From an uncultured delta proteobacterium (GTDB lineage Bacteria > Desulfobacterota > Binatia > Binatales > Binataceae), in contig CAVRVY010000001.1 in the NCBI GenBank assembly GCA_963724765.1, positions 1,312,001-1,376,000 on the forward strand: DNA of 64,000 nucleotides, read 5' to 3'. Shown here in pieces: positions 52,106-63,799 of the stretch. The notes under the pieces are model-generated. The model did no database searches and was not told where the DNA came from. It worked only from the letters and a program-made list of their open reading frames with translations. Within the stretch, counting starts at the first letter, position 1; each line of letters opens with the position of its first letter. Both the position numbers and the translations under genes were made by a program.

Positions 52106-53962
52106 CTAGCTCTCGTCGTTATCCGCGTCTGCGGTTTCGGTTATCGCGCGCGGCGCGGATGCGCTGCGGTGCGAGCACTCGAACATCCCGGCACCGACAA
52201 GATTTCCGACATGACCTCCGATACGAAAACTGGCGAATCCGAGCGAGGTCAGAATTCGACTTTGTGCGGGCCCCGGCCGCGAGAGCATCACGAAGCTCTG
52301 GACTTCGCCGTCGAGGCTGAGCGCTTGAGCGTCGCCGGCCGGCCGCAGTAGCGCGCTGATTCGATGCGGCGGGCGCCTGGGAGTTGCGGGCGTGAGTTCC
52401 AGCCGCTGGAGGCTCGCGTCGATCCATCGTCCGCGATCGAGGACGCGCGCGCTCGCGTTTTCGGCGCCGTCATCGCCGGTAAGCATTCGCGCCTCGACAA
52501 CGTGCCGAGACGCAGTGCCTGGAAAGGCGGCCCATATCATTCGCCGCTCTTTGAAAGTGCCGTTGCCGATCCCGATAAGCGAGCGACCCAGCCGGCCCAC
52601 GGCCTCAAGGCGATGTCTCGCTCCGGCTATCGAGAAGTGGCCGGTGACGCGGCCGAAAACGCCGTCGGCGGAGTGCTCCGCAGTGGTGATCAGTTCGATT
52701 AGCGTTTCGGTGCGCGATTTCAACGACGCGTGCGCCACCGGCCACACCTCGAACTCCGCGTGTAGCTCCATCGCTTCGTGCAGCGAGGCCTTTGCCAGCG
52801 CGCTCTCGACGCTCAGATACGCGGTGCCGTCTTCGACTACGACCGCCGGGCCTGTGAAATCGAAGCGTAGGCGCTCGCCCTCGATCCGCAATGCCAGCGG
52901 GCCAAGCGCCAGGCTTTGCGCCGTGCGTTCGACCCGTCCTTCGGCCGTGAAGAGCGCGATACGTTCGCGGCCCGTAACCGTCATCACGCGCGCACCCGCC
53001 GCGCCCGAGCCAAAATCGAAGCTCGCCATCGCACCCACCTGCGCCGACGAATCGTAAAACTCCAGTCCCACCCGAAGCGGCCCGGCGGAAGATTGCTGGG
53101 CACTGCGCCGGGGCGCTGATGAGGGCGGCTCGATGGTGCGGATGATCTCGATGCGGCTCGTGCGCTCGGTACGGCTTGTGCCGAACGCGTCGGCAGGCCG
53201 ATCGCATCGGGCGAACGATTCGGCGATCGCGGCGATGGTTTCGGTGCGGAAGCGGCCGGGCATCCGCAGCGCCACTGAAAGTTCGAGCTGCACCGCTTCC
53301 AGCGCGCCGCGCGCGTTGAGCGCGGCCAGGCGCTTGAGCGCGCCGACCGGGCTTGAAGCGTGACGTTGGGTGAACGCCTGGAGCAGATTGTTGGCGCCGG
53401 CGCCTGGATAGCGCAGGCCGAAGCTGGGCTTGATACCGCTGCGGCGGAGCGACTCGACGAAATCGAGCAGCGGCCCGTTGATAAAGCCGTCGCTGGCGGA
53501 GACGTGTGCGCCGCACGCCGGCAGCAGCGTCCCGCTGGCAGACTTGACGCCGACACCCAGGTCAACCCGGGGCTCGATGACGTTCCATCCGTGGATCACC
53601 AGCACCACCGCGCGTCCGCTGCGCGTCACGATTCGCTCCAGGCGCGCGGCAATAAGCTCGAGTATCCACGGCGCCTCGCTCATCACCTGGCTCAGGCGGT
53701 TGAGGTCGAGCCGGTTGCGATCCATCCCGGTATTGATGATCGCACCCGCGCCGAGGCGCCGCGCCAGCTCGCGCGTAATATCGGCAGTGTGCAGATCGTT
53801 GACCTTGGGATTGAGCGTCGCGCGCGTCGCCGGGCCGGCATGGCCGCCGTGAGGCGCGATCAGCAATACCGGCGCGTCGCCGTCGGGCCTCTGGAGCCAG
53901 CGCGCGCCTTTCGCCGCGGCGGCTTCGTCAAAGAGGCGCGACTTGGCCGTCGACCTTGCCAT
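52106..53962 (-). CDS. Hypothetical two-domain protein; N-terminus resembles the N-formylglutamate amidohydrolase / Zn-exopeptidase fold
   Basis: LLIAPHGG, ND..T, RNRLDLNR, VIHG, AVQLELS. The C-terminal half is beta-rich. It starts ~10 nt after the pcs-like stop. Confidence 0.55.
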   Translation of the reverse strand: MARSTAKSRLFDEAAAAKGARWLQRPDGDAPVLLIAPHGGHAGPATRATLNPKVNDLHTADITRELARRLGAGAIINTGMDRNRLDLNRLSQVMSEAPWILELIAARLERIVTRSGRAVVLVIHGWNVIEPRVDLGVGVKSASGTLLPACGAHVSASDGFINGPLLDFVESLRRSGIKPSFGLRYPGAGANNLLQAFTQRHASSPVGALKRLAALNARGALEAVQLELSVALRMPGRFRTETIAAIAESFARCDRPADAFGTSRTERTSRIEIIRTIEPPSSAPRRSAQQSSAGPLRVGLEFYDSSAQVGAMASFDFGSGAAGARVMTVTGRERIALFTAEGRVERTAQSLALGPLALRIEGERLRFDFTGPAVVVEDGTAYLSVESALAKASLHEAMELHAEFEVWPVAHASLKSRTETLIELITTAEHSADGVFGRVTGHFSIAGARHRLEAVGRLGRSLIGIGNGTFKERRMIWAAFPGTASRHVVEARMLTGDDGAENASARVLDRGRWIDASLQRLELTPATPRRPPHRISALLRPAGDAQALSLDGEVQSFVMLSRPGPAQSRILTSLGFASFRIGGHVGNLVGAGMFECSHRSASAPRAITETADADNDES

Positions 53963-53971
53963 CAACCTTCA

Positions 53972-54741
53972 TCATGCACCGCGCCGATAACGCCTGAGTT
54001 TCATCGCCGCGCGCGCGTGCAGGATAAACGAGGCGGCGAAGTAATAAGCGATGAACGACAGCGAGGCATAGAGCAGTAACGGGTTATGTCCGGGTAACGC
54101 GGGCAACATTGCGAGCGTGATTATCGCCCAGGCGATCGCAAGCGTGAGTGTCAGCGCGCGCAGCGGCCCGGTGCGATTGGGATAGATGTACTTAATCGGC
54201 ACGAACACCATCAGTGCGAATATCGCGACGATGATCGTGCCGGCGAGCGCTCCGAGTTCGAGACAATAGAGATAAAACGCGACCAGGTTCCAGTACGACG
54301 GGAAGCCGCGGAAGTAGTGATCGTCGGTCTTGGCTTCGATGTGGCAAAATCCGTAGCCGCTCGCAACCATCACGAAGCCGCCGACGATGTAACCGCCGAG
54401 GCCGGGCTCTAAAATTCCCGCACGCAGCATCAGGAAGACCGGCGCGAGCACGTAGGTCAGATAGTCGACGACATTGTCGAGCAAGGCGCCGTCGAAGTGG
54501 GGGATGCGCCGGCGCACCTCGAGCAGGCGGGCGAGCGGGCCGTCGCTGGAGTCGATTGCGGTCGCAACCGCCATCGCGATGAAGCTCGCGCGAAAATCGC
54601 CGCGCGCGGCGTAATCGATAGAGAGCAGGCCGGCTACAGCGCCGAGCGCGGTGTACAGGTGAACGCCCCAGGCGCAAAGCCGCAGCCAGCGCTCGCGCGC
54701 AAGGGCGGCGGCGTCGCGGCCCGCCCGCGCAACCGGCTCAC
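53972..54741 (-). CDS. pcs: Phosphatidylcholine synthase-like CDP-alcohol phosphatidyltransferase; probable frameshift just after the GTG start
   Basis: DSSDGPLAR...FDGALLDNVVDYLTY motif, KTDDHYFRGFPSYWN, FVPIKYIYP. The in-frame upstream AWGVHLYTALG matches the Pcs N-terminus. A GTGA overlap with the upstream stop needs one extra C. Confidence 0.75.
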
Positions 54742-55271
54742 TTGCCGGGCTTGTGATGGCGCGGTCCGAAGTAGTCCTCCAAAATCGTCATGAACGGGCC
54801 GCAGGTGCGGCGCCCCTTGACGTGCGCGCAGGCCTCGTCGAGCGACATTTCGCCGTGCGCGCGCAAGTAAGCGATCGCGAGTGTCGGCGCGCGATTGAGA
54901 CCGGCGTTGCAATGCAGGTAAACGCGCTCGCCGGCGCTGATGAGGCTTGCCAGCGCGGCGAGCGTATCGGCGAGCCGCTCGGCCATCGCGTCCGCGCTGC
55001 CATCCTGGATCTGCGTGCGAACGAATTTGATTCCGCTTAAGCGGCAGGCCTCGGCGAGCTCACGTTCGCCGAGTCCATTGAGCGCCAGATCCTCGTCATC
55101 CTGAAGATTGTGAATGGCGGTGACACCGAACTCCGATTTGAGCCAGGCGATGTCGTCCGGGCGGGGAAATTCGCCGACCAGGAGTCCCGGAAAAATTTCT
55201 GTCACCGACGGACGGCCGCGATTGTGCGCCACGTGGCTCTGATGATCGGGTCGTTTGCTGAACCAGTCCAT
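54738..55271 (-). CDS. Dual-specificity/PTP-type phosphatase (CX5R)
   Basis: VYLHCNAGLNRAPT, IQD acid loop, AYL...A...VKGRR. Confidence 0.88.
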   Translation of the reverse strand: MDWFSKRPDHQSHVAHNRGRPSVTEIFPGLLVGEFPRPDDIAWLKSEFGVTAIHNLQDDEDLALNGLGERELAEACRLSGIKFVRTQIQDGSADAMAERLADTLAALASLISAGERVYLHCNAGLNRAPTLAIAYLRAHGEMSLDEACAHVKGRRTCGPFMTILEDYFGPRHHKPGK

Positions 55272-55391
55272 CTTTTGTGAAGTGTGCGATCGCGACAGCC
55301 CGCTCCTGCGCGCCGCTAATTTTCATTTTAGCTCATCAGCCTGAGGCTCTAAACCTGGGAATCGCGGCGCTCGGTCAACCCCTTTGACTCC

Positions 55392-55476
55392 TTCCGTCGT
55401 CCTGAGCGAAGGCTGCCGGAGCGAAGGATCTCGCGCGGTCTTCCGCGCGTAATCCGCTACCTTCAGGATGACGGAA
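55392..55476. repeat. Palindromic intergenic element of the GTCATCCTGAGCGAAG...GGATGAC repeat type
   Basis: Arms TTCCGTCGTCCTGAG and TTCAGGATGACGGAA enclose GCGAAGG...GCGAAGGATCTC and an inner CGCGCGG/CCGCGCG hairpin. Confidence 0.6.
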
Positions 55477-55600
55477 CACGGCTTGTGCTGAACGCTTGTA
55501 TATCAATCTATAACTCAGCCCACTCGTGTCGCTCAGGTGCCAGGGTGGCCGGCGAGCAAACCCTGACGCCGGTGGCCTAGAGCGTCAGCGCATGCTGCGC

Positions 55601-58600
55601 TCAGCCCTTGGCGCGACGGCCGCCGCGCGCCGACGCGCGGCGCGGCCGATTCGCGGTGCGCGGCTCGTCGCCCGCCTCTCCAGCCGGCTGAGCGGTTTCC
55701 GCTGGGGCCACTGCGGTGCCGCCATCGTCGCTGTGCGCGCTATGCGCGCGCATGGAGCGCTTGGCCGCGCTGGACAGCGGCAGTCTCTCGCCCAGCGCCA
55801 GCACCGCCGCACGCATCGCGTCGGCGAGCTTGCGATAGGCGCCGGTGCCCTCGGCGTTGTCGGCGAGCGCGCGCAACTCGGCGTTGGTTATCACGCGGCC
55901 AATTCGGACTTCGACCGGGCGGCGATGCGGGATGATGCTGCCTTTGCCGAGAACCTCGTAAGTGCCGCTGATACGTACCGGCAGCACGTCGCATCCGCCG
56001 CGCAGCGCCAGGTAACCCGCGCCGCTTTTGAATTCGTGGATCGCGCCGTCGGGTGAGCGCGTGCCCTCGGGAAACATCAGGACGCTGCGCCCGGCATCAA
56101 GCTCGTCGATCGCGTCGTCGAGCGAGTCAAGCTGCGCGCGCTCGCGGTCGAACGGAATCAGGCGGGTGAAGTTGCTGACCACGAAGCGGCGCGCGTTGGT
56201 ATTGAAGAAATAATCCTTGGCGGCGAGCACGACCAGCTCGCGGCCCGGCGCGCCCAGCGCGTAGCTGGTGAGCGCGAAGTCGAGATGGCTCGCGTGATTG
56301 GCGACCACCAGGAAGTTGCGATTCGCCGGCACGTTGCCGCGGCCCAGCACGCGCGGCTGGAGCCAACCGTCAAACGCCATCCGCTGCGCCCCGCGAAACG
56401 CCGCTTCGCCCAGGCGCTTGAGCGCCCCCGGCAAGATCGGCGTGAACGGCTCGGCGAAGCGCGCGTATGACGGCAGCCGCGGGCGGTTCTGTCCCTGGCC
56501 CACGGCGCGTTGCAGATCGTCGACGGTGCGAAGGTCGCCTAGCTCCTCGGGGCTCAGCTCGCGCTCGGCGTGAGCCGCGATATGCTCGGCCAGTTCGGCC
56601 ATCGCCAGCGAGTCGAGTCCGAGGTCTTCGATAAGCCGGGTCGCGGGCGTGATGCTCTCGATGCCGCTGGAGACCTGGGCGAGCGCCTGGGCTAGCCACG
56701 GCTCGACCTCGGAGCTGACCGCCGCACGCTCCTGGGCGTGGCTCTCGAGCATCCGCGCGAGGATCCCGACGACTTCGAGGCGCTTGACCTTGCGCGTGCG
56801 GGTCCGCGGCAGCTCGGTGTCGGTGAAACGCAGGATGCGGATGCGTTTGTGCGGGCTGAGTCCCGCGCCCACCTTTTCGAAATGCGTACGCAGGTTGTCT
56901 TCCACGGCGCGACGGCTTTCACCGCGTGCGTAAGCCGGTACCACCAGCGCCGCGGCCTGCTCGCCCAGGGCAACCTTAAGCCCGACGATCGCAATCTCCT
57001 TGATATACGACGAGTGTCCGTAAACTTCTTCGAGTTCGTCGATATAAATATTGTTGCCGCCGGAGTCGACGATCACGTCCTTGGCGCGGCCAACGATGTA
57101 GAGCCGTCCGTCTTCGTCGAGGCGGCCGAGGTCTCCGGTGCGGAGCCACCCTTCGTGCAACACCTCGTCGGTGGCGGCTTTGTTGTGGTAGTAACCCGCC
57201 ATCACGTTCGGCCCGCGCGCCAGGATTTCGCCCACTGTGCCGTCGCCGCTGGAGGCGAGCTTGATTTCGACGCCATTGAGCGGCTTGCCGACCGACCCGG
57301 CGGCCATCGGTTCGTCCGGGCGCGCGACGCTCAGCACTGGCGCGGCCTCGGTCAGGCCGTAACCCTCGAGTAGCCGTATCCCGATGTCGTTGAAGAAGCT
57401 GGCTACGCGTTGCGGCAGCGCCGCGCCGCCGCTCACCGCGAGCCGCAGCCGCCCGCCAAGCGCGGTATGGGCCTGGCGGAAGAGCATCGCGCCGGCATTG
57501 AGACCCCATTCGCTGTCGAACCTGCGGTTGAGATCGCGCAGGCGATCGAACAACGCGTGGAGGAAGGGCCCTTGCGCCTCGACCCCGTCGACGATGCGGC
57601 GATGCACCGCCTCCCACAGCGCGGGCACGCCGACCACCGCGGTCGGCCGCACGTCGGCCAGCGTGCGCGCGAGGCTCGCGGCGTCCACGCCGAGCGGATA
57701 GACCACGGTCGCGCCGAGCGCGAGCGGCAACAGCATCCCGCACGTGAACTCGAAGGTGTGATGGAGCGGGAGCAGTGAGAGCACCACGTCGGAGGAATCG
57801 AGCGCAAAGACCCGCGCGAGCATCGCTACTTCGGCGGCGAAATTCCCATGCGTGAGCATCACGCCCTTGGGCGCGCCGGTGGTGCCGGAGGTAAAAACGA
57901 TGGAGGCGAGGGTCTTGCGCTCGGCGGCGGGCCGCGGGTCGGGCCGCCCTTTGAGCACGAAGGGACGGCTCAGCTCGGCGAACTCGAACTCGACGATCTC
58001 GCTGTTCAGCTCAGCCAGTGCGCCGCCCAGCCGCTTGGCGACGGCCGCCGAGCATAGCGCCGCAGCGGGCGTAGCGATGCGGCAGATGGGCGCCAGCTCT
58101 TCGGGCGAAATCAGATGGTCCAGCGGTACGGCGACCGCACCGGCGGCGAGAATCGAAAAATATGCGAGCACCCACTCGGGCGAGTTCTCGCCGATGAGCA
58201 GCACGCGGTCGCCCGTCTTGACCCCGCGCATCCCGAGCAACAGGCCGGCGCGATGCGCACCGTCGCGCAGCTCGCGGAAGGTGGACGTGATGCGCTCGCC
58301 CGAGGGTTGCCGCGCAACCAGCGCGGGCCGCGAGCCGTAGCGCTCAGCCGCGCGGTCCAGCATTTCGGCCAGGGTGCGATGGCGCGCCGGAGCGCTGGGG
58401 CGGCCGCGGGTATGCAGATCGAGCGAGCCGAAGATGTGCCGGCGCAGTCCCGGCAGATGCACGTTGATCCAGTAGTCCGCCCAATCGATTCGTTCGGGCG
58501 CGTAGGGATGATGCTCGGCGTCGGCACTCGCGAGCGATTTGTAGAGCGCGCGGATGTTGGTGCCGTGGAAGGTGTAGACGAGTTCCTGGATGTATGGGCG

Positions 58601-60019
58601 ATAGACCTCAACCAGCTCGCGCGCCATTGCGGTGTTGGCGCCAAACTTGTCGACGCTCTGCGCGAACTTTTTCGCGCGCTCGGAGTCCTCGCCAAGCAGC
58701 GTGCGCGCGGCGCCGGCGCCCTGCTTGAGCAACTCGGGCAGCGTCTGGCTCGCGAGCTCGTAAGTGCTCTGCGAGACGACCACCGCCTCCAGGTGCGGTG
58801 CAAAGCGGCCCATGGGACCGCCCACGCGGCGATGCTCGCGACGGTTGCTGAGCCCGGTCAGCTCGACCAGCCGGCGCATCGGCAACGGATTCACGTCGGA
58901 CGTGCAGAGCTGGTAGATGGGTTTGTGGCGTCCGGCGAGCAGTGCCGCGAGAATCGGGATCATCGCGTGCGCTGCAAGGTCGACCGGAATGACGTCGAGC
59001 ACCAGCTCGCCCTTGGCCGGGTACAGGCGATAACCGCGGCCGGAAAGATAAGTCAACGGAGCGCTGGTGTTGACGCCCTGGTTCCATCCGGGGAACGGGT
59101 CGCGGAGCGCGCTTTCGATGATCGAGGGGCGCGCCACCGTGGCGGCAATCGTGTCCTGCGCCGCGAACACCAGTTGCTCGCCGAGGCTCTTGCTGTAGCT
59201 GTAGGTGTTGGGCCATCCCCAGCGCCGCGCGCGCTCCAGGCCAATCTCCTTGAGCCGTTCTTCGACCCAGCGCTTGCGCCAGCGCTCGGCCGCCGCTTCG
59301 TGGACGTCGCCGCCGTCGGCGTCCGCATTGACCACGTGCAGCTCGTCGGCCTGGCGCGCCTGGTCGTGGGATTCCGCTTCCACGCGGGCGACCGCGGCGA
59401 GCGCGTCGCGGATTTCGCGCCGCAGCGTGAAATTGCGCCGGCCGTTGGGACACCAGTCGGTCGGTATGTCGTCCTCGAAACGATGGCCGTCCGCGTTGCC
59501 CGCGGCGTAGCAGGTCGAAACATGGAGCAGCGCGGCGCCGCGCTTGCGGCAGAACTCGATCACGTTGGCAACGCCGGTGGTGTTGACCGACAGCGACTTC
59601 TCCAGCGAGGCCTCGAAGTTGACCAGTCCCGCGCAATGCACCACCGCGTCGATCGCGCCGCGGCCCGGCGCCTCGCCCTCGGAGACCAGGTCGTCCTCGG
59701 TGATGTCGCCGCAGAGCACGGAAAGCTTTTCCTCGACGTAGCGGTCGAAGCGGTCGCCAAGGTGTTCGCGCAAAGGACCGAACACGGGCGAGTCGAGAAT
59801 TTCGCGGCGCAAGCGGCTGAGCGCGAGGCGGCGGTCGCCGCGGATGAGCAGGTAGATGCGCTCGATCTCGGGATGCCAGCGCAGGAGCAGCGAGAGGAAG
59901 ACCTTGCCGAGAAAGCCGGTCGCGCCGGTCAGCAGGATGCGGCGGTGGCGCAGCGTCTGTTCGAGCGGCGCCATCGCGGTGCGCGCGGCGCTGCCGTTAG
60001 TTCCATTGCTATTCGACAT
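55601..60019 (-). CDS. elbD: ElbD-like multifunctional enzyme: fatty acyl reductase, AMP-binding domain, carrier protein, PlsC acyltransferase
   Basis: FAR: LTGATGFLGK, HVSTCY, NTYSYSK, RPSIIES. Adenylation: FTSGTTGAPKG, GYGLTE, TGDLG. Carrier: LGLDSL. Acyltransferase: NHASHLD, FPEGTRS. 1472 aa. Confidence 0.85.
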   Translation of the reverse strand: MSNSNGTNGSAARTAMAPLEQTLRHRRILLTGATGFLGKVFLSLLLRWHPEIERIYLLIRGDRRLALSRLRREILDSPVFGPLREHLGDRFDRYVEEKLSVLCGDITEDDLVSEGEAPGRGAIDAVVHCAGLVNFEASLEKSLSVNTTGVANVIEFCRKRGAALLHVSTCYAAGNADGHRFEDDIPTDWCPNGRRNFTLRREIRDALAAVARVEAESHDQARQADELHVVNADADGGDVHEAAAERWRKRWVEERLKEIGLERARRWGWPNTYSYSKSLGEQLVFAAQDTIAATVARPSIIESALRDPFPGWNQGVNTSAPLTYLSGRGYRLYPAKGELVLDVIPVDLAAHAMIPILAALLAGRHKPIYQLCTSDVNPLPMRRLVELTGLSNRREHRRVGGPMGRFAPHLEAVVVSQSTYELASQTLPELLKQGAGAARTLLGEDSERAKKFAQSVDKFGANTAMARELVEVYRPYIQELVYTFHGTNIRALYKSLASADAEHHPYAPERIDWADYWINVHLPGLRRHIFGSLDLHTRGRPSAPARHRTLAEMLDRAAERYGSRPALVARQPSGERITSTFRELRDGAHRAGLLLGMRGVKTGDRVLLIGENSPEWVLAYFSILAAGAVAVPLDHLISPEELAPICRIATPAAALCSAAVAKRLGGALAELNSEIVEFEFAELSRPFVLKGRPDPRPAAERKTLASIVFTSGTTGAPKGVMLTHGNFAAEVAMLARVFALDSSDVVLSLLPLHHTFEFTCGMLLPLALGATVVYPLGVDAASLARTLADVRPTAVVGVPALWEAVHRRIVDGVEAQGPFLHALFDRLRDLNRRFDSEWGLNAGAMLFRQAHTALGGRLRLAVSGGAALPQRVASFFNDIGIRLLEGYGLTEAAPVLSVARPDEPMAAGSVGKPLNGVEIKLASSGDGTVGEILARGPNVMAGYYHNKAATDEVLHEGWLRTGDLGRLDEDGRLYIVGRAKDVIVDSGGNNIYIDELEEVYGHSSYIKEIAIVGLKVALGEQAAALVVPAYARGESRRAVEDNLRTHFEKVGAGLSPHKRIRILRFTDTELPRTRTRKVKRLEVVGILARMLESHAQERAAVSSEVEPWLAQALAQVSSGIESITPATRLIEDLGLDSLAMAELAEHIAAHAERELSPEELGDLRTVDDLQRAVGQGQNRPRLPSYARFAEPFTPILPGALKRLGEAAFRGAQRMAFDGWLQPRVLGRGNVPANRNFLVVANHASHLDFALTSYALGAPGRELVVLAAKDYFFNTNARRFVVSNFTRLIPFDRERAQLDSLDDAIDELDAGRSVLMFPEGTRSPDGAIHEFKSGAGYLALRGGCDVLPVRISGTYEVLGKGSIIPHRRPVEVRIGRVITNAELRALADNAEGTGAYRKLADAMRAAVLALGERLPLSSAAKRSMRAHSAHSDDGGTAVAPAETAQPAGEAGDEPRTANRPRRASARGGRRAKG

Positions 60020-61649
60020 CAGCGATCACCAGCGGCGGTAAGTGGAGATAGGTGATACTGGCCGAGCGCCCCAGATCCGACGTCGCCATCGCGATCGCCT
60101 CGTCCAGCGTGTCGGCCGACTCCCATCCCATACGCGTTGCGACTTCCGGCTCCTCGCATCCTGCGGCGATTACCCGTCCTACGTGCTGGCGAGCCGGCTC
60201 GCCCCAGTACCACATGTAGAACGGATGCACGCCGTGATAGGCATGGCCGTAGCGATACATGTGAACGTAGGTCGGGTTGCGTGCGAACTCGGCTTCGAAG
60301 TTGCGCTCCAGCTCGGTGGCCTCGGTGGTCTCGCGCAGGCAGCGATGGAAGAACTCGATGTAACTCGGATGATGCTCGGGGTGAAACTGATCGCGCAACG
60401 GATGACAGATGATCACGGTACCGCCTTCGCGTACCAGCGGCTTGCCGCGGAACATGTTGAACAGGTAGCCAAGACCCGTGCACTGCACCAGCACCGGGTT
60501 CATCACCGAGTTGACGTTGTAGGGGCAGACGTAGGGAACGCCTACGATCAGCACGTCGGACTGGCCCTTGACCGGCACCGCGTATTGCTGGAACACGCGG
60601 GCCAGCGCCTTGCGATGCACCGCGTCGGTCTCGCCCGCCCACACGCCGGTCATCGAATAGGGCGCGGCGTATTGATTGAGCACCTGGCGGCGCAGTGAAT
60701 CCGACATGTTGCCGAGCGTCCAGCGAAAGCCCTTCAACCGCATCCGATCCCAATCCGAGAAGCGGTCCTCGTTCTTCTGCAGAAAATCGAGCATCCCGCC
60801 GTACATCTGGTTGTTGATCGCGGTCTCGATGGTGAAGACATTGACGTGCTCGTTGACCAGGCGGCCCATCCGGTTGGCCGAGTGATGCAGCGCCGATCGC
60901 GTCGGGTCCATGTAGGAATTGCACTGGCGCAGCGTGGCCGGGTTGTGATGGTGGCGCAGGCTCTGGTAGGGCGCGAGGCCGACCGCGACGGATTTGTGGC
61001 CGCCGTCCATCGGGACCAGGTTGATGTTGAGATAGAGCAGCAGGTCGGACTCGGCCGCGCGGCGTGAGAGCCATACCTCCTCGCCATGATCGGTCTTGCC
61101 CAGCATCGCCAGCTCGGCGCGATTCTCGGCGTCGAAGTTATACAGCCGTTCGGGCCAGAACTCCTTGAACGCGCGCTCGCCCACCATGCGGCGAATCTCG
61201 GCCTCGGTCATGCGCCGATGGAGCGAGGTTGCGACGATCAGATGGACATCGTCGACGCCGTAGTCGGCGAGCGTCTGGAGTACGATGTTGAGCGCGCGCT
61301 CGCGGATATCGGGCCGGCGCATCTGCGGCAGCGGCAGGCTGATGTCGTCGATCGCGATCGTGACGCGCATGTTGGGATTGAGCTGCGCGAACAGCGGATC
61401 GGCGTTTTCAGGACGTAACAGCGCGTAGCGGATCGCGGCATCAGGATTGGCCAGCGGCTCCAGCGGCGGCGGGGGATAGATCACTCGCGTGCCGGCGGGC
61501 AGCTTCTCGTACCAGAAGTCGTCGCCATAGGCGATGAGCCGCGGCGCCGAGCGCCGGTTGAGCGTCACCACCAGGTCTCGGCGCGCGCCGGGCTCGTGCC
61601 GGAGTTCGGCGGTCTTCAGCTCTTTGAGCTTACCTTCCGGTCGCGCCAT
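60009..61649 (-). CDS. Lactate racemase (LarA/DUF2088) N-terminal domain protein, ElbC-like
   Basis: TIAIDDISLP, IVATSLHRRMT, LGKTDHGEEV, ESDLL, GGHKS. Overlaps both neighbours. Confidence 0.75.
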   Translation of the reverse strand: MARPEGKLKELKTAELRHEPGARRDLVVTLNRRSAPRLIAYGDDFWYEKLPAGTRVIYPPPPLEPLANPDAAIRYALLRPENADPLFAQLNPNMRVTIAIDDISLPLPQMRRPDIRERALNIVLQTLADYGVDDVHLIVATSLHRRMTEAEIRRMVGERAFKEFWPERLYNFDAENRAELAMLGKTDHGEEVWLSRRAAESDLLLYLNINLVPMDGGHKSVAVGLAPYQSLRHHHNPATLRQCNSYMDPTRSALHHSANRMGRLVNEHVNVFTIETAINNQMYGGMLDFLQKNEDRFSDWDRMRLKGFRWTLGNMSDSLRRQVLNQYAAPYSMTGVWAGETDAVHRKALARVFQQYAVPVKGQSDVLIVGVPYVCPYNVNSVMNPVLVQCTGLGYLFNMFRGKPLVREGGTVIICHPLRDQFHPEHHPSYIEFFHRCLRETTEATELERNFEAEFARNPTYVHMYRYGHAYHGVHPFYMWYWGEPARQHVGRVIAAGCEEPEVATRMGWESADTLDEAIAMATSDLGRSASITYLHLPPLVIADVE

Positions 61650-62427
61650 CCGTAGCTCTCCCCAGCCAGTCCAGCAGCCACGTCCCGGTTGAGCTGCCGT
61701 CGCGGACGGGCTCGGCGTCATGGCTGAAACGAACAATGGGCCATTTGCGATTGTGCGCGGCGGCGAGCAGGCGGCGATCGGGATTGACGGCCACCGGATG
61801 CCCCAGCGCGCAGAGAAAGGGTAAGTCGTAGTATGAGTCGGCGTATCCCCAGCATCCCGCCATGTCGACGCGGCACGCCTCAGTGAAGCTTTCGCACCAC
61901 TGCGACTTCTCGGAACCCGCCATCACCGGCTCCAGCATCCGGCCCGTAGCGAGTCCGCGGCTGTAGACCAGGCGGTTGGCGGCGAAATATTCGATCTTGA
62001 GGCGGCGCGCGAGCGGCTCGACCAGGAAATCAGGCGACCCGGTAACCAGCACCGGTTCGATTCCGGCGGCGCGATTGGCCTCGAGCATTTCGATCGCGCG
62101 CGGATACAGATGGCGCATCAGCACCCGGTCGCAATACTCGTCTCCAAGTTCCCACAGACGGTCGCGCGAGACCCCCTTGTAGGCCTCGAACAGCATCATG
62201 TTGAGCAGCCGGCGGTCGTGACGCTCGGCCATGTAGAGCCGCGGAAGGCTGAGCGCGAGACGGGCGAGATAGCCGGCACGTCCGCTCCATTCGCCCAGGT
62301 TGGCCATGTAGAAGACGGTGGCGTGCAGCAGGTTGAGACTGGCCAGCGTGCCGTCGAGGTCGTAAAAGGCCAGCACCTTAGCCCGGCCGCGGGAGCTGCG
62401 TCCCGTTCTGGTCGCATAAACTGACAT
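61630..62427 (-). CDS. HAD-IB (SerB-like) phosphatase, ElbB-like
   Basis: FYDLDGTL, VTGS, conserved K, GYADSYYD, GHPVAVNPD. Confidence 0.88.
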   Translation of the reverse strand: MSVYATRTGRSSRGRAKVLAFYDLDGTLASLNLLHATVFYMANLGEWSGRAGYLARLALSLPRLYMAERHDRRLLNMMLFEAYKGVSRDRLWELGDEYCDRVLMRHLYPRAIEMLEANRAAGIEPVLVTGSPDFLVEPLARRLKIEYFAANRLVYSRGLATGRMLEPVMAGSEKSQWCESFTEACRVDMAGCWGYADSYYDLPFLCALGHPVAVNPDRRLLAAAHNRKWPIVRFSHDAEPVRDGSSTGTWLLDWLGRATDGATGR

Positions 62428-62428
62428 G

Positions 62429-63079
62429 TCATTCTACCTTGGGCCCAGAAACAGCGCGCTCAGCCGTTGGCAATTCGCCACGCCGGCGGGCTTCGTCGAG
62501 CAACTCCGGGCGCGCCACGCCACCCAGTCCGAAGGCCAGAATTTCTTCGACTAGCGAATCGATCTCACGCGGGCGCCGGCGCGCGATCTGGCCGACCACC
62601 TCCTTGATTCCGCCCAGGATGCAATAGGCGGCGATGCGCGTGTCGCAGGGACGCACGAGGTTCATCTGCACGCCCAGGTCCAGCGAACGCTGGATGGCGT
62701 CGGCGATGCGCTGGTAGAATTCCAGGATCCGCAAATCGAGGTCGCGGTCGAAACCCACCGAGTGGTTGAGCAGGATATCGGTCAATTCGCGCTCCGCCAG
62801 CACGAAATTCATCACGCGCTTGAGGTTGTCGCGCAGTTGATTGACCGGGTCGGGTTCATCCGCGCGCAGGCGCTGGATGCGTCGTGAAAGCTCGGTTAGC
62901 ACTTGGGCGAGCAGTTCCTCGAAGAGATCCTTCTTGTTTTGAAAGTAGAGGTAGAAGGTACCTCGTGCGATACGAGCGCGGGCGATGATATCAGCGACAT
63001 TGGTCCGATGATAGCCTTTGCGCGCGAATATCCGCTTGGCATGGCGCAACACCTGGGCGCGCCGGGCCTGTCGTTCCAT
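62429..63079 (-). CDS. TetR/AcrR-family transcriptional regulator
   Basis: FARKGYHRTNVADII...IARGTFYLYFQNKKDLF. Its stop lies 1 nt from the HAD start. Confidence 0.92.
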   Translation of the reverse strand: MERQARRAQVLRHAKRIFARKGYHRTNVADIIARARIARGTFYLYFQNKKDLFEELLAQVLTELSRRIQRLRADEPDPVNQLRDNLKRVMNFVLAERELTDILLNHSVGFDRDLDLRILEFYQRIADAIQRSLDLGVQMNLVRPCDTRIAAYCILGGIKEVVGQIARRRPREIDSLVEEILAFGLGGVARPELLDEARRRGELPTAERAVSGPKVE

Positions 63080-63104
63080 TACAAGAAAACCTCAGGAGAA
63101 TAAG

Positions 63105-63133
63105 ACCCTATCGGCCCGTTCCGGTAGTGTCAA
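63105..63133 (-). promoter_or_regulatory. sigma70 promoter of the tetR-HAD-larA-elbD operon
   Basis: The minus strand reads TTGACA (63133-63128) - 17 nt - TAGGGT (63110-63105), 25 nt upstream of the TetR ATG. Confidence 0.65.
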
Positions 63134-63181: not shown

Positions 63182-63655
63182 TCACGGAGAAGGTGGCGAC
63201 GGCGGGCACGGACTGCAAGCCGACGCCGGCTGTCCGACGCCTATCAGCACCGGCGGGCTTATCACCGTCCCGGAGGCGGCCGTAATACACGTGCACCCCG
63301 TCACCGTGTGCGAGGTGAAGAAGCCTTGACCCTCACTGGTGAGGAGCGAATTGTTGACGAACCAGTTTGCCGACGGCGAGATATTCTGGAAAGTGCTGAT
63401 CCCGTTGGAGCTGAACTCACCCTGGGCATAGAACTCGTAGTCGTCGGTGCTGAGCGGAATCTCAGCCGAGGTGGCTTGTGTACACGCGGCCCCGGTTGAT
63501 GGAGCCTGCGCGCAGACCCGCATCACTATCAGCGTTATCGGCGTGACGGTAGGAGACGGGGCCGAGCTGCTCGAGCCGCCGCCGCAACTGAGCAGCAGCG
63601 TCGTCATCACGAAAGCCAGTACAGGCCCGACAATCAAGCATCTTTTTTGCCACAT
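63182..63655 (-). CDS. Putative Cys-rich lipoprotein (Ig-like)
   Basis: Lipobox LLLS-C followed by GGGSSSS; several Cys pairs. Confidence 0.65.
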   Translation of the reverse strand: MWQKRCLIVGPVLAFVMTTLLLSCGGGSSSSAPSPTVTPITLIVMRVCAQAPSTGAACTQATSAEIPLSTDDYEFYAQGEFSSNGISTFQNISPSANWFVNNSLLTSEGQGFFTSHTVTGCTCITAASGTVISPPVLIGVGQPASACSPCPPSPPSP

Positions 63656-63799
63656 CAAGCATCCAGCTATGCCGTGGTAGCTCCAGCGCTGTCAAGCAGA
63701 GGCGCCAGAAACTAGACATGCCGGCCCTAAATTCTTCCCGTCAGATGGGTGGAGAGGCGGGAGTGATTCGAAATCGAAGCTGGAGAGTCGCCAGACAAG

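Follow-up and report, generated by a model that had tools for sequence, protein, structure and literature searches.

A TetR-led gene cluster in uncultured Binataceae proposed as a version of the elb ether-lipid cluster

Gene content of the locus

The window analysed here is a 64,000-nucleotide stretch of the genome of an uncultured member of the Binataceae, and the subject of this report is a compact gene cluster on its minus strand (Table 1). Between positions 55601 and 63133 the strand encodes a TetR regulator, a HAD-IB phosphatase, a LarA-family protein and a 1472-residue enzyme with fatty acyl reductase (FAR), acyl-ligase, acyl carrier protein (ACP) and acyltransferase domains; three additional genes on the same strand follow the large enzyme, and the corrected span reaches 52106. 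We regard this locus as the Binataceae version of the elb ether-lipid cluster of Myxococcus xanthus, and would give a probability of about 0.6 to this reading, in which the organism would make ether lipids. A preliminary description of the window had listed the first four genes as an adjoining or overlapping set with intact catalytic motifs, and Pfam, NCBIfam and the motifs in the translations agree with it.

Table 1. Features of the cluster, in coordinates of the window
Feature	Position	Strand	Basis or remark
Promoter-like site: TTGACA (63133-63128), 17 nt, TAGGGT (63110-63105)	63105..63133	-	25 nt upstream of the TetR ATG
TetR-family regulator, 216 aa	62429..63079	-	Pfam TetR_N, E 7e-16
HAD-IB phosphatase, ElbB-like, 265 aa	61630..62427	-	PF12710, E 3e-29; TIGR01490, 98.7 bits against a cut-off of 98.3
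LarA-family protein (nickel-pincer-nucleotide type), ElbC-like, 546 aa	60009..61649	-	NF052592, Lar_N
ElbD-like enzyme, 1472 aa: fatty acyl reductase, acyl-AMP ligase, ACP, PlsC/GNPAT-type acyltransferase	55601..60019	-	
Intergenic gap elbD-DSP (about 330 bp), with promoter-like TTTAGA-17-TAAAAT (55353-55325) and a short REP-like repeat	55272..55600	-	
Dual-specificity-phosphatase-fold protein (DSP), 177 aa, active-site motif HCNAGLNR	54738..55271	-	Pfam DSPc, E 4e-15
Pcs-like CDP-alcohol phosphatidyltransferase	53972..54685	-	Start uncertain; CTG 54685 proposed
619-aa protein of no family	52106..53965	-	Atlas clusters, AlphaFold; Binatota labels only so far

The assembly containing the window comprises 5.4 Mb in four contigs and is 97% complete, and the base composition of the cluster is close to that of the remainder of the window. 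Relatives were collected by a scan of one genome per species, which gave 71 loci whose large enzyme is 66-96% identical to ours. The host had been thought to be non-myxobacterial, and all 71 loci indeed come from Binataceae, Binatus or generically labelled metagenome-assembled genomes (MAGs); the titles read Candidatus Binataceae, Candidatus Binatus, uncultured Binatia, "delta proteobacterium", "Proteobacteria" or "bacterium", with one Candidatus Acidiferrales. NCBI taxonomy places the Binataceae under Candidatus Binatota. Pieces identical to the cluster occur in peat and soil metagenome assemblies, one of which may be the source sample.

The ElbD-like enzyme and the HAD-IB phosphatase

Pfam resolves the large enzyme into NAD_binding_4 (residues 30-353), a weak Sterile/FAR_C match (466-530), AMP-binding (554-944), PP-binding (1108-1169) and Acyltransferase (1223-1351). 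All four domains have their catalytic motifs intact (GATGFLG at 32, YSYSK at 273, TSGTTG at 710, GLDS at 1134, HASHLD at 1242 and FPEG at 1316), and the FAR domain is single-copy, a second one having been sought in the genome and not found. The order of the domains is the one published for M. xanthus ElbD (FAR, acyl-CoA synthetase/ligase, ACP, AGPAT-like; PMC9131029), as had been claimed from the window alone. Among Atlas protein clusters, a Myxococcota-labelled cluster appears at score 0.93 for the large enzyme, which we take as a lead only, and the best 120 matches of a protein search aimed at M. xanthus ElbD and ElbC were all of Binataceae type; motifs like those of M. xanthus were seen in none of the proteins collected. 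Contig depth is very high at 57632-57942 in all four runs; this stretch is the conserved AMP-binding core around TSGTTG, onto which contigs of unrelated organisms cross-map, and the peak is therefore no signal of copy number.

The ligase, ACP and acyltransferase domains could also be understood as acting like Aas, recycling exogenous fatty acids into phospholipids under a fatty-acid-sensing TetR, while the Pcs-like transferase downstream would make ordinary phosphatidylcholine. The NCBIfam Aas models PRK08633 and PRK06814 match the enzyme at 212 and 183 bits, the top match of the regulator is a FadR model and Pcs models head the matches of the transferase. Nevertheless, the Aas scores fall far under their cut-offs (1221 and 1349 bits), the domains stand in another order, and this explanation would leave without a role both the N-terminal reductase and the tightly coupled LarA-like gene, which is the most conserved of the cluster. 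We consider it very improbable.

The HAD-IB phosphatase shows the motifs DLDGT and DSYYD in translation, and is encoded directly upstream of the LarA-like gene, which we describe next as ElbC-like.

A LarA-family protein without the second catalytic histidine

The ElbC-like protein matches Lar_N (E 3e-34) and the NCBIfam model NF052592, LarAH_14_15_16, with 839 bits against a cut-off of 740; its nearest solved structures are PDB 9q2u (E 7e-31) and 9Q3J (E 9e-29). It keeps D101 (ribose-binding), H144 (the catalytic histidine), K219 (cofactor-tethering) and H234/H235 (nickel-binding). When it is aligned to 9q2u and to the entries for groups 14 and 15 in Dataset S2 (PMC7583248), Leu occupies the Arg75 position and His174 has no histidine counterpart. 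By its residues, then, the protein has the cofactor ligands of the LarA superfamily and lacks both the second catalytic histidine and the carboxylate- or phosphate-binding arginine.

The same is seen in M. xanthus. Dataset S2 of Desguin et al. 2020 (PMC7583248) gives MXAN_1529 as a LarA homologue of group 15 which keeps Asp72, His108, Lys184 and His200, and which has Val at Arg75 and a gap at His174. Around the active site, 58 of 100 residues of the printed MXAN_1529 are identical to ours, by a hand count made with no alignment tool. Since elbA is MXAN_1531 and elbE is MXAN_1527 (PMC13012113), MXAN_1529 must be elbC. The preliminary description had placed HAD and DUF2088 genes upstream of elbD in that operon, and this was right: elbB is a HAD gene and elbC belongs to LarA group 15.

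Groups 14 and 15 of the LarA family are described as having no second catalytic histidine, and for the single-histidine LarA-related enzymes quite different substrates are presumed (PMC12611868). Like the members of these groups (Frankia LarAH14 and MXAN_1529, under NF052592), the ElbC-like protein exceeds the family cut-off and is likewise devoid of His174 and Arg75. It also resembles LarA_Sp and LarA_Bw (9Q2U, 9Q3J; PMC12611868), which have one catalytic histidine and keep the cofactor ligands; those two, however, carry Asn at the second position and lie among carbohydrate genes, as opposed to Val and a lipid context here. With the arginine and the second base lost, a hidden-redox step on a non-acid hydroxyl would fit this active site, whereas racemisation of a hydroxy acid would not.

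LarB, LarC and LarE are all encoded, with scores over their cut-offs (285, 470 and 327 bits, respectively), and the ElbC-like protein is the sole Lar_N or LarA-family protein of the genome. Across 201 sampled Binatia genomes, LarC was found in 183 (a count that includes one genome flagged unpublished, G426) and an ElbC-type gene in 30. A phylogenetic-profile argument for the cofactor was dropped, because LarC is nearly universal in Binatia with or without the ElbC-type gene.

Conservation within and beyond the Binataceae

A survey across related MAGs, which had been suggested along with the preliminary description, found that the cluster recurs in 71 of 71 loci as far as the contigs extend. 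By tblastn, the LarA-like gene is present in 70 of them, and the TetR and HAD genes in 62 each. The same nine loci have neither TetR nor HAD; in all of them the sequence extends upstream past the LarA-like gene barely or not at all, so that the contig end is the probable reason. Median identities over the 58 more distant loci are 84% for the LarA-like protein, 73% for TetR, 70% for ElbD, 63% for the Pcs-like transferase, 62% for DSP, 61% for HAD and 47% for the 619-residue protein; the LarA-like protein is thus the most conserved of the cluster. At E <= 1e-60, an ElbC-type gene was found in 23 of 25 other sampled Binataceae genomes, against 6 of 175 genomes of other Binatia families.

To look outside the family, we searched 1.84 billion representatives for relatives of the LarA-like protein; 356 proteins matched at E <= 1e-30, and the nearest named matches were from Chloroflexota (52% identity) and from a MAG labelled "Myxococcales bacterium" (50%). 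A metagenome scan queried with four ElbC-like proteins gave 80 loci, 23 of them Binataceae-like and 57 others. In these other loci, HAD lies directly upstream of the ElbC-like gene in 42 of 46 evaluable cases, and a FAR domain directly downstream in 27 of 42. Several have the ElbD-like gene upstream of the ElbC-like gene instead, and about ten show none in the available sequence. In 10 of 12 of the non-Binataceae metagenome loci examined for it, the first gene after elbD was of the NAD-dependent epimerase family, that is, ElbE-like.

Comparison with known elb clusters

According to a 2022 review (PMC9131029), the M. xanthus operon consists of elbA and elbE, both of the NAD-dependent epimerase/dehydratase family, elbB, a HAD-like phosphohydrolase, elbC, of unknown function, and elbD, with FAR-like, acyl-CoA-synthetase, ACP and AGPAT-like domains; disruption of elbD strongly lowered alkyl and vinyl ether lipids. 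The Binataceae cluster has in common with elbABCDE the HAD, LarA-family and FAR-ligase-ACP-acyltransferase genes, in the same order and tightly packed. It differs in that the cluster holds no epimerase-type gene of the elbA or elbE kind, a TetR gene leads and three other genes follow. The phylum of the host also differs, and ElbD was compared through its published description. We consider the assignment of the elbB-C-D core to the elb kind sound on this gene content, with its defining elbE feature missing. The absence of an ElbE-like short-chain dehydrogenase after elbD, already noted in the preliminary description, extends to the whole cluster, and the Binataceae differ in this from most of the metagenome loci examined for it.

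An elb-like operon outside the myxobacteria had been thought to be new, but such operons have already been published in several phyla. ElbD homologues or elb-like clusters are reported from Acidobacteriota, Poribacteria, Chloroflexota, Planctomycetota and others (PMC11868695; bioRxiv 10.64898/2026.06.23.733905), among them ElbD homologues of many phyla in the Black Sea (PMC11868695), and elb-like clusters of sponge Acidobacteriota and Poribacteria, with more than 150 organisms retrieved by a cluster search (bioRxiv 10.64898/2026.06.23.733905). The clusters of Acidobacteriota (subdivisions 4 and 6) and Poribacteria likewise combine a non-myxobacterial ElbD with ElbB, and some of them adjoin phospholipid genes; the accessible portions of these two reports do not name Binatota (PMC11868695; bioRxiv 10.64898/2026.06.23.733905). 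None of the papers listed by our literature searches linked Binatota or Binatia to ElbD or ether lipids, a statement that does not extend to preprint supplements, where such MAGs may be labelled "Proteobacteria". The word "ether" is absent from the Binatota genome survey, and in the papers listed neither ElbC nor ether lipids were paired with lactate racemase or DUF2088. What is new here is a lineage-specific TetR regulator, together with a putative head-group module, in a further elb cluster.

The TetR regulator, the promoter and the gene junctions

The TetR gene heads the operon, as had been described, and it turned out to be a trait specific to the Binataceae: it is present in 22 of the 23 Binataceae-like metagenome loci, against one weak match in the 57 others. 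Its best NCBIfam match is the Bacillus-type FadR model NF053878, with 64.6 bits under a cut-off of 200. By this score, the protein would not belong to the acyl-CoA-sensing FadR regulators, and we class it only as a TetR-family regulator.

In the sequence before this gene, 25 of 25 aligned regions from relatives share TTGAC(A/T) at one position, within flanks that otherwise do not align. Because the hexamer is kept at the same place in such surroundings, we read TTGACA-17-TAGGGT as a probable real promoter. A consensus promoter scan made no call at this site, since its -10 hexamer matches the consensus at three of six positions only. An 11-bp imperfect inverted repeat (9/11) across the -35 to -10 region was considered as an operator for TetR; it is unsupported, since its right arm is conserved in relatives and its left arm is variable.

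The junctions between the first four genes are tight. One base separates the TetR stop from the HAD start, the LarA-like gene overlaps HAD by 20 nt when read from ATG 61649, and its stop runs 11 nt into the start of the ElbD-like gene. ATG 61649, with a GGAGAG box upstream, is most likely the LarA-like start; TTG 61736 is less likely. Probably, tetR and the elbB-like, elbC-like and elbD-like genes form one TetR-controlled transcript. Contigs of a single soil metatranscriptome library, about 91-94% identical to our sequence, cover DSP, elbD, elbC and the HAD-elbC junction. Their source is a relative, and since DNA may be present in such libraries they are a weak hint of expression at most; they carry no information on transcript starts, strand or level, and the parts that they leave uncovered have no meaning. 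RNA families and tRNAs were looked for within the cluster and none were found.

The three downstream genes

In 58 of 71 loci the genes for DSP, the Pcs-like transferase and the 619-residue protein are present, with strand and order unchanged. Thirteen loci lack them, and 12 of these stop inside elbD or no more than about 1.1 kb past it; the remaining one, L009, has 8 kb of downstream sequence and yet all three are missing.

Among solved structures, DSP comes closest to two plant glucan phosphatases, LSF2 (E 4e-19) and SEX4. For the following gene, five Pcs models are the top NCBIfam matches, at up to 191 bits and all under their cut-offs of 300-440, while serine-type transferases reach 30 bits. 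The CDP-alcohol motif is visible in the translation, and we file the predicted protein as Pcs-like only, its scores being short of the Pcs equivalogs. A conserved first transmembrane segment is encoded upstream of the first ATG (54575-54737 of the window, minus strand). In the window and in its closest relatives, L001 and L008, no in-frame ATG, GTG or TTG precedes this segment, so that translation would begin at CTG (54685) or another unusual start; farther relatives have an ATG. The 619-residue protein had no family match in Pfam and NCBIfam at default thresholds. Its AlphaFold model (pLDDT 81.7) has two domains, the N-terminal one resembling N-formylglutamate amidohydrolase and the C-terminal beta domain resembling AttH, fungal Diels-Alderases, kievitone hydratase and 25-phosphosteroid lyase; these relatives of the beta domain are enzymes that hold hydrophobic substrates.

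We hypothesize that the phosphatase, the transferase and the 619-residue protein make up a head-group module linked to the elb core. It is also possible that they form a separate unit beside elb, functionally unconnected with it, an explanation that we take seriously but think somewhat doubtful. It would account for the 330-bp gap with its own promoter-like site, for the inserts of 1-3 kb that occur at the same gap in many relatives, for L009, and for the outcome of the search for the three genes in the 57 non-Binataceae metagenome loci, which found none of them. The constancy of strand and order stands against it, as does the fact that two of the three are of lipid-type folds or families.

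Some further observations concern the gap itself. The short repeat at 55380-55480 recurs in part at six other places in the genome (copies of 22-51 nt), and looks like a REP-like element common to other soil bacteria. Most of it falls in the depth bin 55144-55454, for which two peat metagenome assemblies give values of 240 and 158, most other bins being in single digits. In about one third of the distant Binataceae loci, elbD and DSP are separated by an additional gene of about 1 kb; in L012 (12124-13299), the only one checked, it gives a weak match to zinc-dependent phospholipase C (31 bits) and a match to S1/P1 nuclease. About 3 kb of extra sequence lies between the same genes in L014 (12430-15400), with several open reading frames (ORFs), one of them transposase-like by eye.

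Interpretation of the cluster

In the pathway that we propose, the ElbD-like enzyme would adenylate a long-chain fatty acid and load it onto its own ACP, its N-terminal reductase would convert the acyl thioester into a fatty aldehyde or alcohol, and its C-terminal acyltransferase would acylate a glycerol phosphate or dihydroxyacetone phosphate (DHAP) acceptor. The same reductase and acyltransferase activities are those expected of the eukaryotic and myxobacterial FAR/GNPAT/AGPS route to alkyl-DHAP. The ElbC-like protein would use the nickel-pincer nucleotide cofactor made by LarB, LarC and LarE, and would transiently take a hydride from the hydroxyl carbon of a non-carboxylate, glycerol-type intermediate; this step might replace the keto chemistry that AGPS and a separate reductase carry out elsewhere. 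That ether-bond formation is the ElbC-like step is only our inference. The HAD enzyme would strip a phosphate, and the Pcs-like enzyme and the DSP phosphatase would install the polar head group. As product we would expect a saturated 1-O-alkyl glycerolipid, whose head group may be of choline type. Repression of the promoter by TetR would be lifted on binding of a lipid or acyl-CoA ligand.

The preliminary description had also stated that the organism makes mono- and dialkyl ether lipids. The elb-type core genes on which the statement relied are there and production is what we would predict from them; the dialkyl part has no specific support.

Several points weigh against an ether-lipid function. 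In M. xanthus, inactivation of elbE lowered ether lipids, and the Binataceae have no ElbE; moreover, neither FAR nor acyltransferase activity could be demonstrated in vitro for M. xanthus ElbD, and the route to the ether bond is described as unknown (PMC9131029). Pontiella has ElbD homologues and yet showed no ether lipids (PMC11868695). The orthology that we propose with MXAN_1528 is suggested by architecture and neighbours. As LarC is near-universal in Binatia, the cofactor genes are permissive for a nickel-pincer enzyme and not specific. Frankia LarAH14 was inactive on all acids tried (Desguin et al. 2020), and eight LarA homologues from other families of the phylum (34-41% identical, in eight genomes) have no elb neighbours. 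Co-transcription of the three downstream genes with elbD is uncertain, given the gap of 330 bp, its promoter-like site and the inserts in relatives. Finally, the lipid side of the Binataceae cluster is a prediction from its genes.

Some of these points would suit a pathway with no ether bond, in which the cluster makes neutral or other acyl lipids derived from fatty alcohol or aldehyde (wax-ester-like or acylated polar lipids), and the LarA-like protein isomerises a hydroxylated head group or a hydroxy acid. Besides the Pontiella case and the lack of ElbE, such a pathway would be in line with the FAR domain and its weak Sterile/FAR_C match, typical of alcohol-forming reductases, and with the characterised LarA relatives, which are hydroxy-acid racemases or epimerases. 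We nonetheless find it unlikely: the cluster contains no wax synthase or DGAT-type gene, the ElbC-like protein is without the carboxylate-binding arginine and the second histidine that hydroxy-acid racemisation needs, and the conserved HAD-LarA-ElbD core is tied genetically to ether lipids in M. xanthus. The elb ether-lipid reading is thus the one that we prefer.

The preferred reading can be carried further. The ElbC-type nickel-pincer enzyme might itself form the ether, through a redox-neutral, transient oxidation of a glycerol hydroxyl that dispenses with both AGPS and ElbE; the Pcs-like and phosphatase genes would then lead to a choline-type alkyl ether phospholipid, and the family would be a source of orphan ether lipids. 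We regard this combination as a long shot. Were it correct, an abundant uncultured family of peat and soil would be such a source.

Bacterial ether lipids of soil and peat serve as environmental proxies, yet most of their producers have not been identified, nor has the enzyme that makes the ether bond in the aerobic elb route. The locus adds a widespread uncultured family to the genetic candidates for producers. It is, in addition, a natural minimal variant, elbB-C-D without elbE and with larBCE and a single LarA-family gene, which makes it a clean setting in which to study the role of ElbC. Its value is limited in that this kind of cluster was already known and that ether-lipid production is a prediction.

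Other genes of the genome and the window

An unlinked ElbE was sought with ten ElbE-like proteins, and all of them hit the same genomic gene best, at 31-40% identity. Located between squalene and hopene genes, this gene is most simply taken as a putative hopanoid-cluster epimerase, and the candidate was rejected. The hopanoid/squalene cluster (G000:C1:1271071-1279000, L168) lies outside the window and contains a squalene-hopene cyclase, Dxr, two genes of the squalene/phytoene-synthase family, an amine oxidase and the epimerase. HpnH and HpnJ radical SAM genes are found elsewhere on the same contig.

The CarF/PEDS1 desaturase model (PF10520) had no match in the genome, and it matched none of 14 control genomes either. 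No AGPS turned up, although no search with an AGPS-specific model was made. With tetraether (Tes) or membrane-spanning-lipid (Mss) synthases in mind, 19 radical SAM proteins of the genome were scanned against NCBIfam, with no Tes or Mss reference included; 14 have ordinary names and five have no match over a curated cut-off. The five unnamed ones (L177, L179, L181, L182 and L184) include two of B12-binding type, one of which weakly matches a model named "lipid biosynthesis B12-binding/radical SAM".

Just beyond the promoter-like site, a 158-codon ORF (63182-63658, minus strand) has no family match. The N-terminus of its product would resemble a signal peptide with a lipobox (LLLSCGGG), and the tail would be rich in Pro and Ser; the ORF is kept in the nearest relatives only, at 54-79%.

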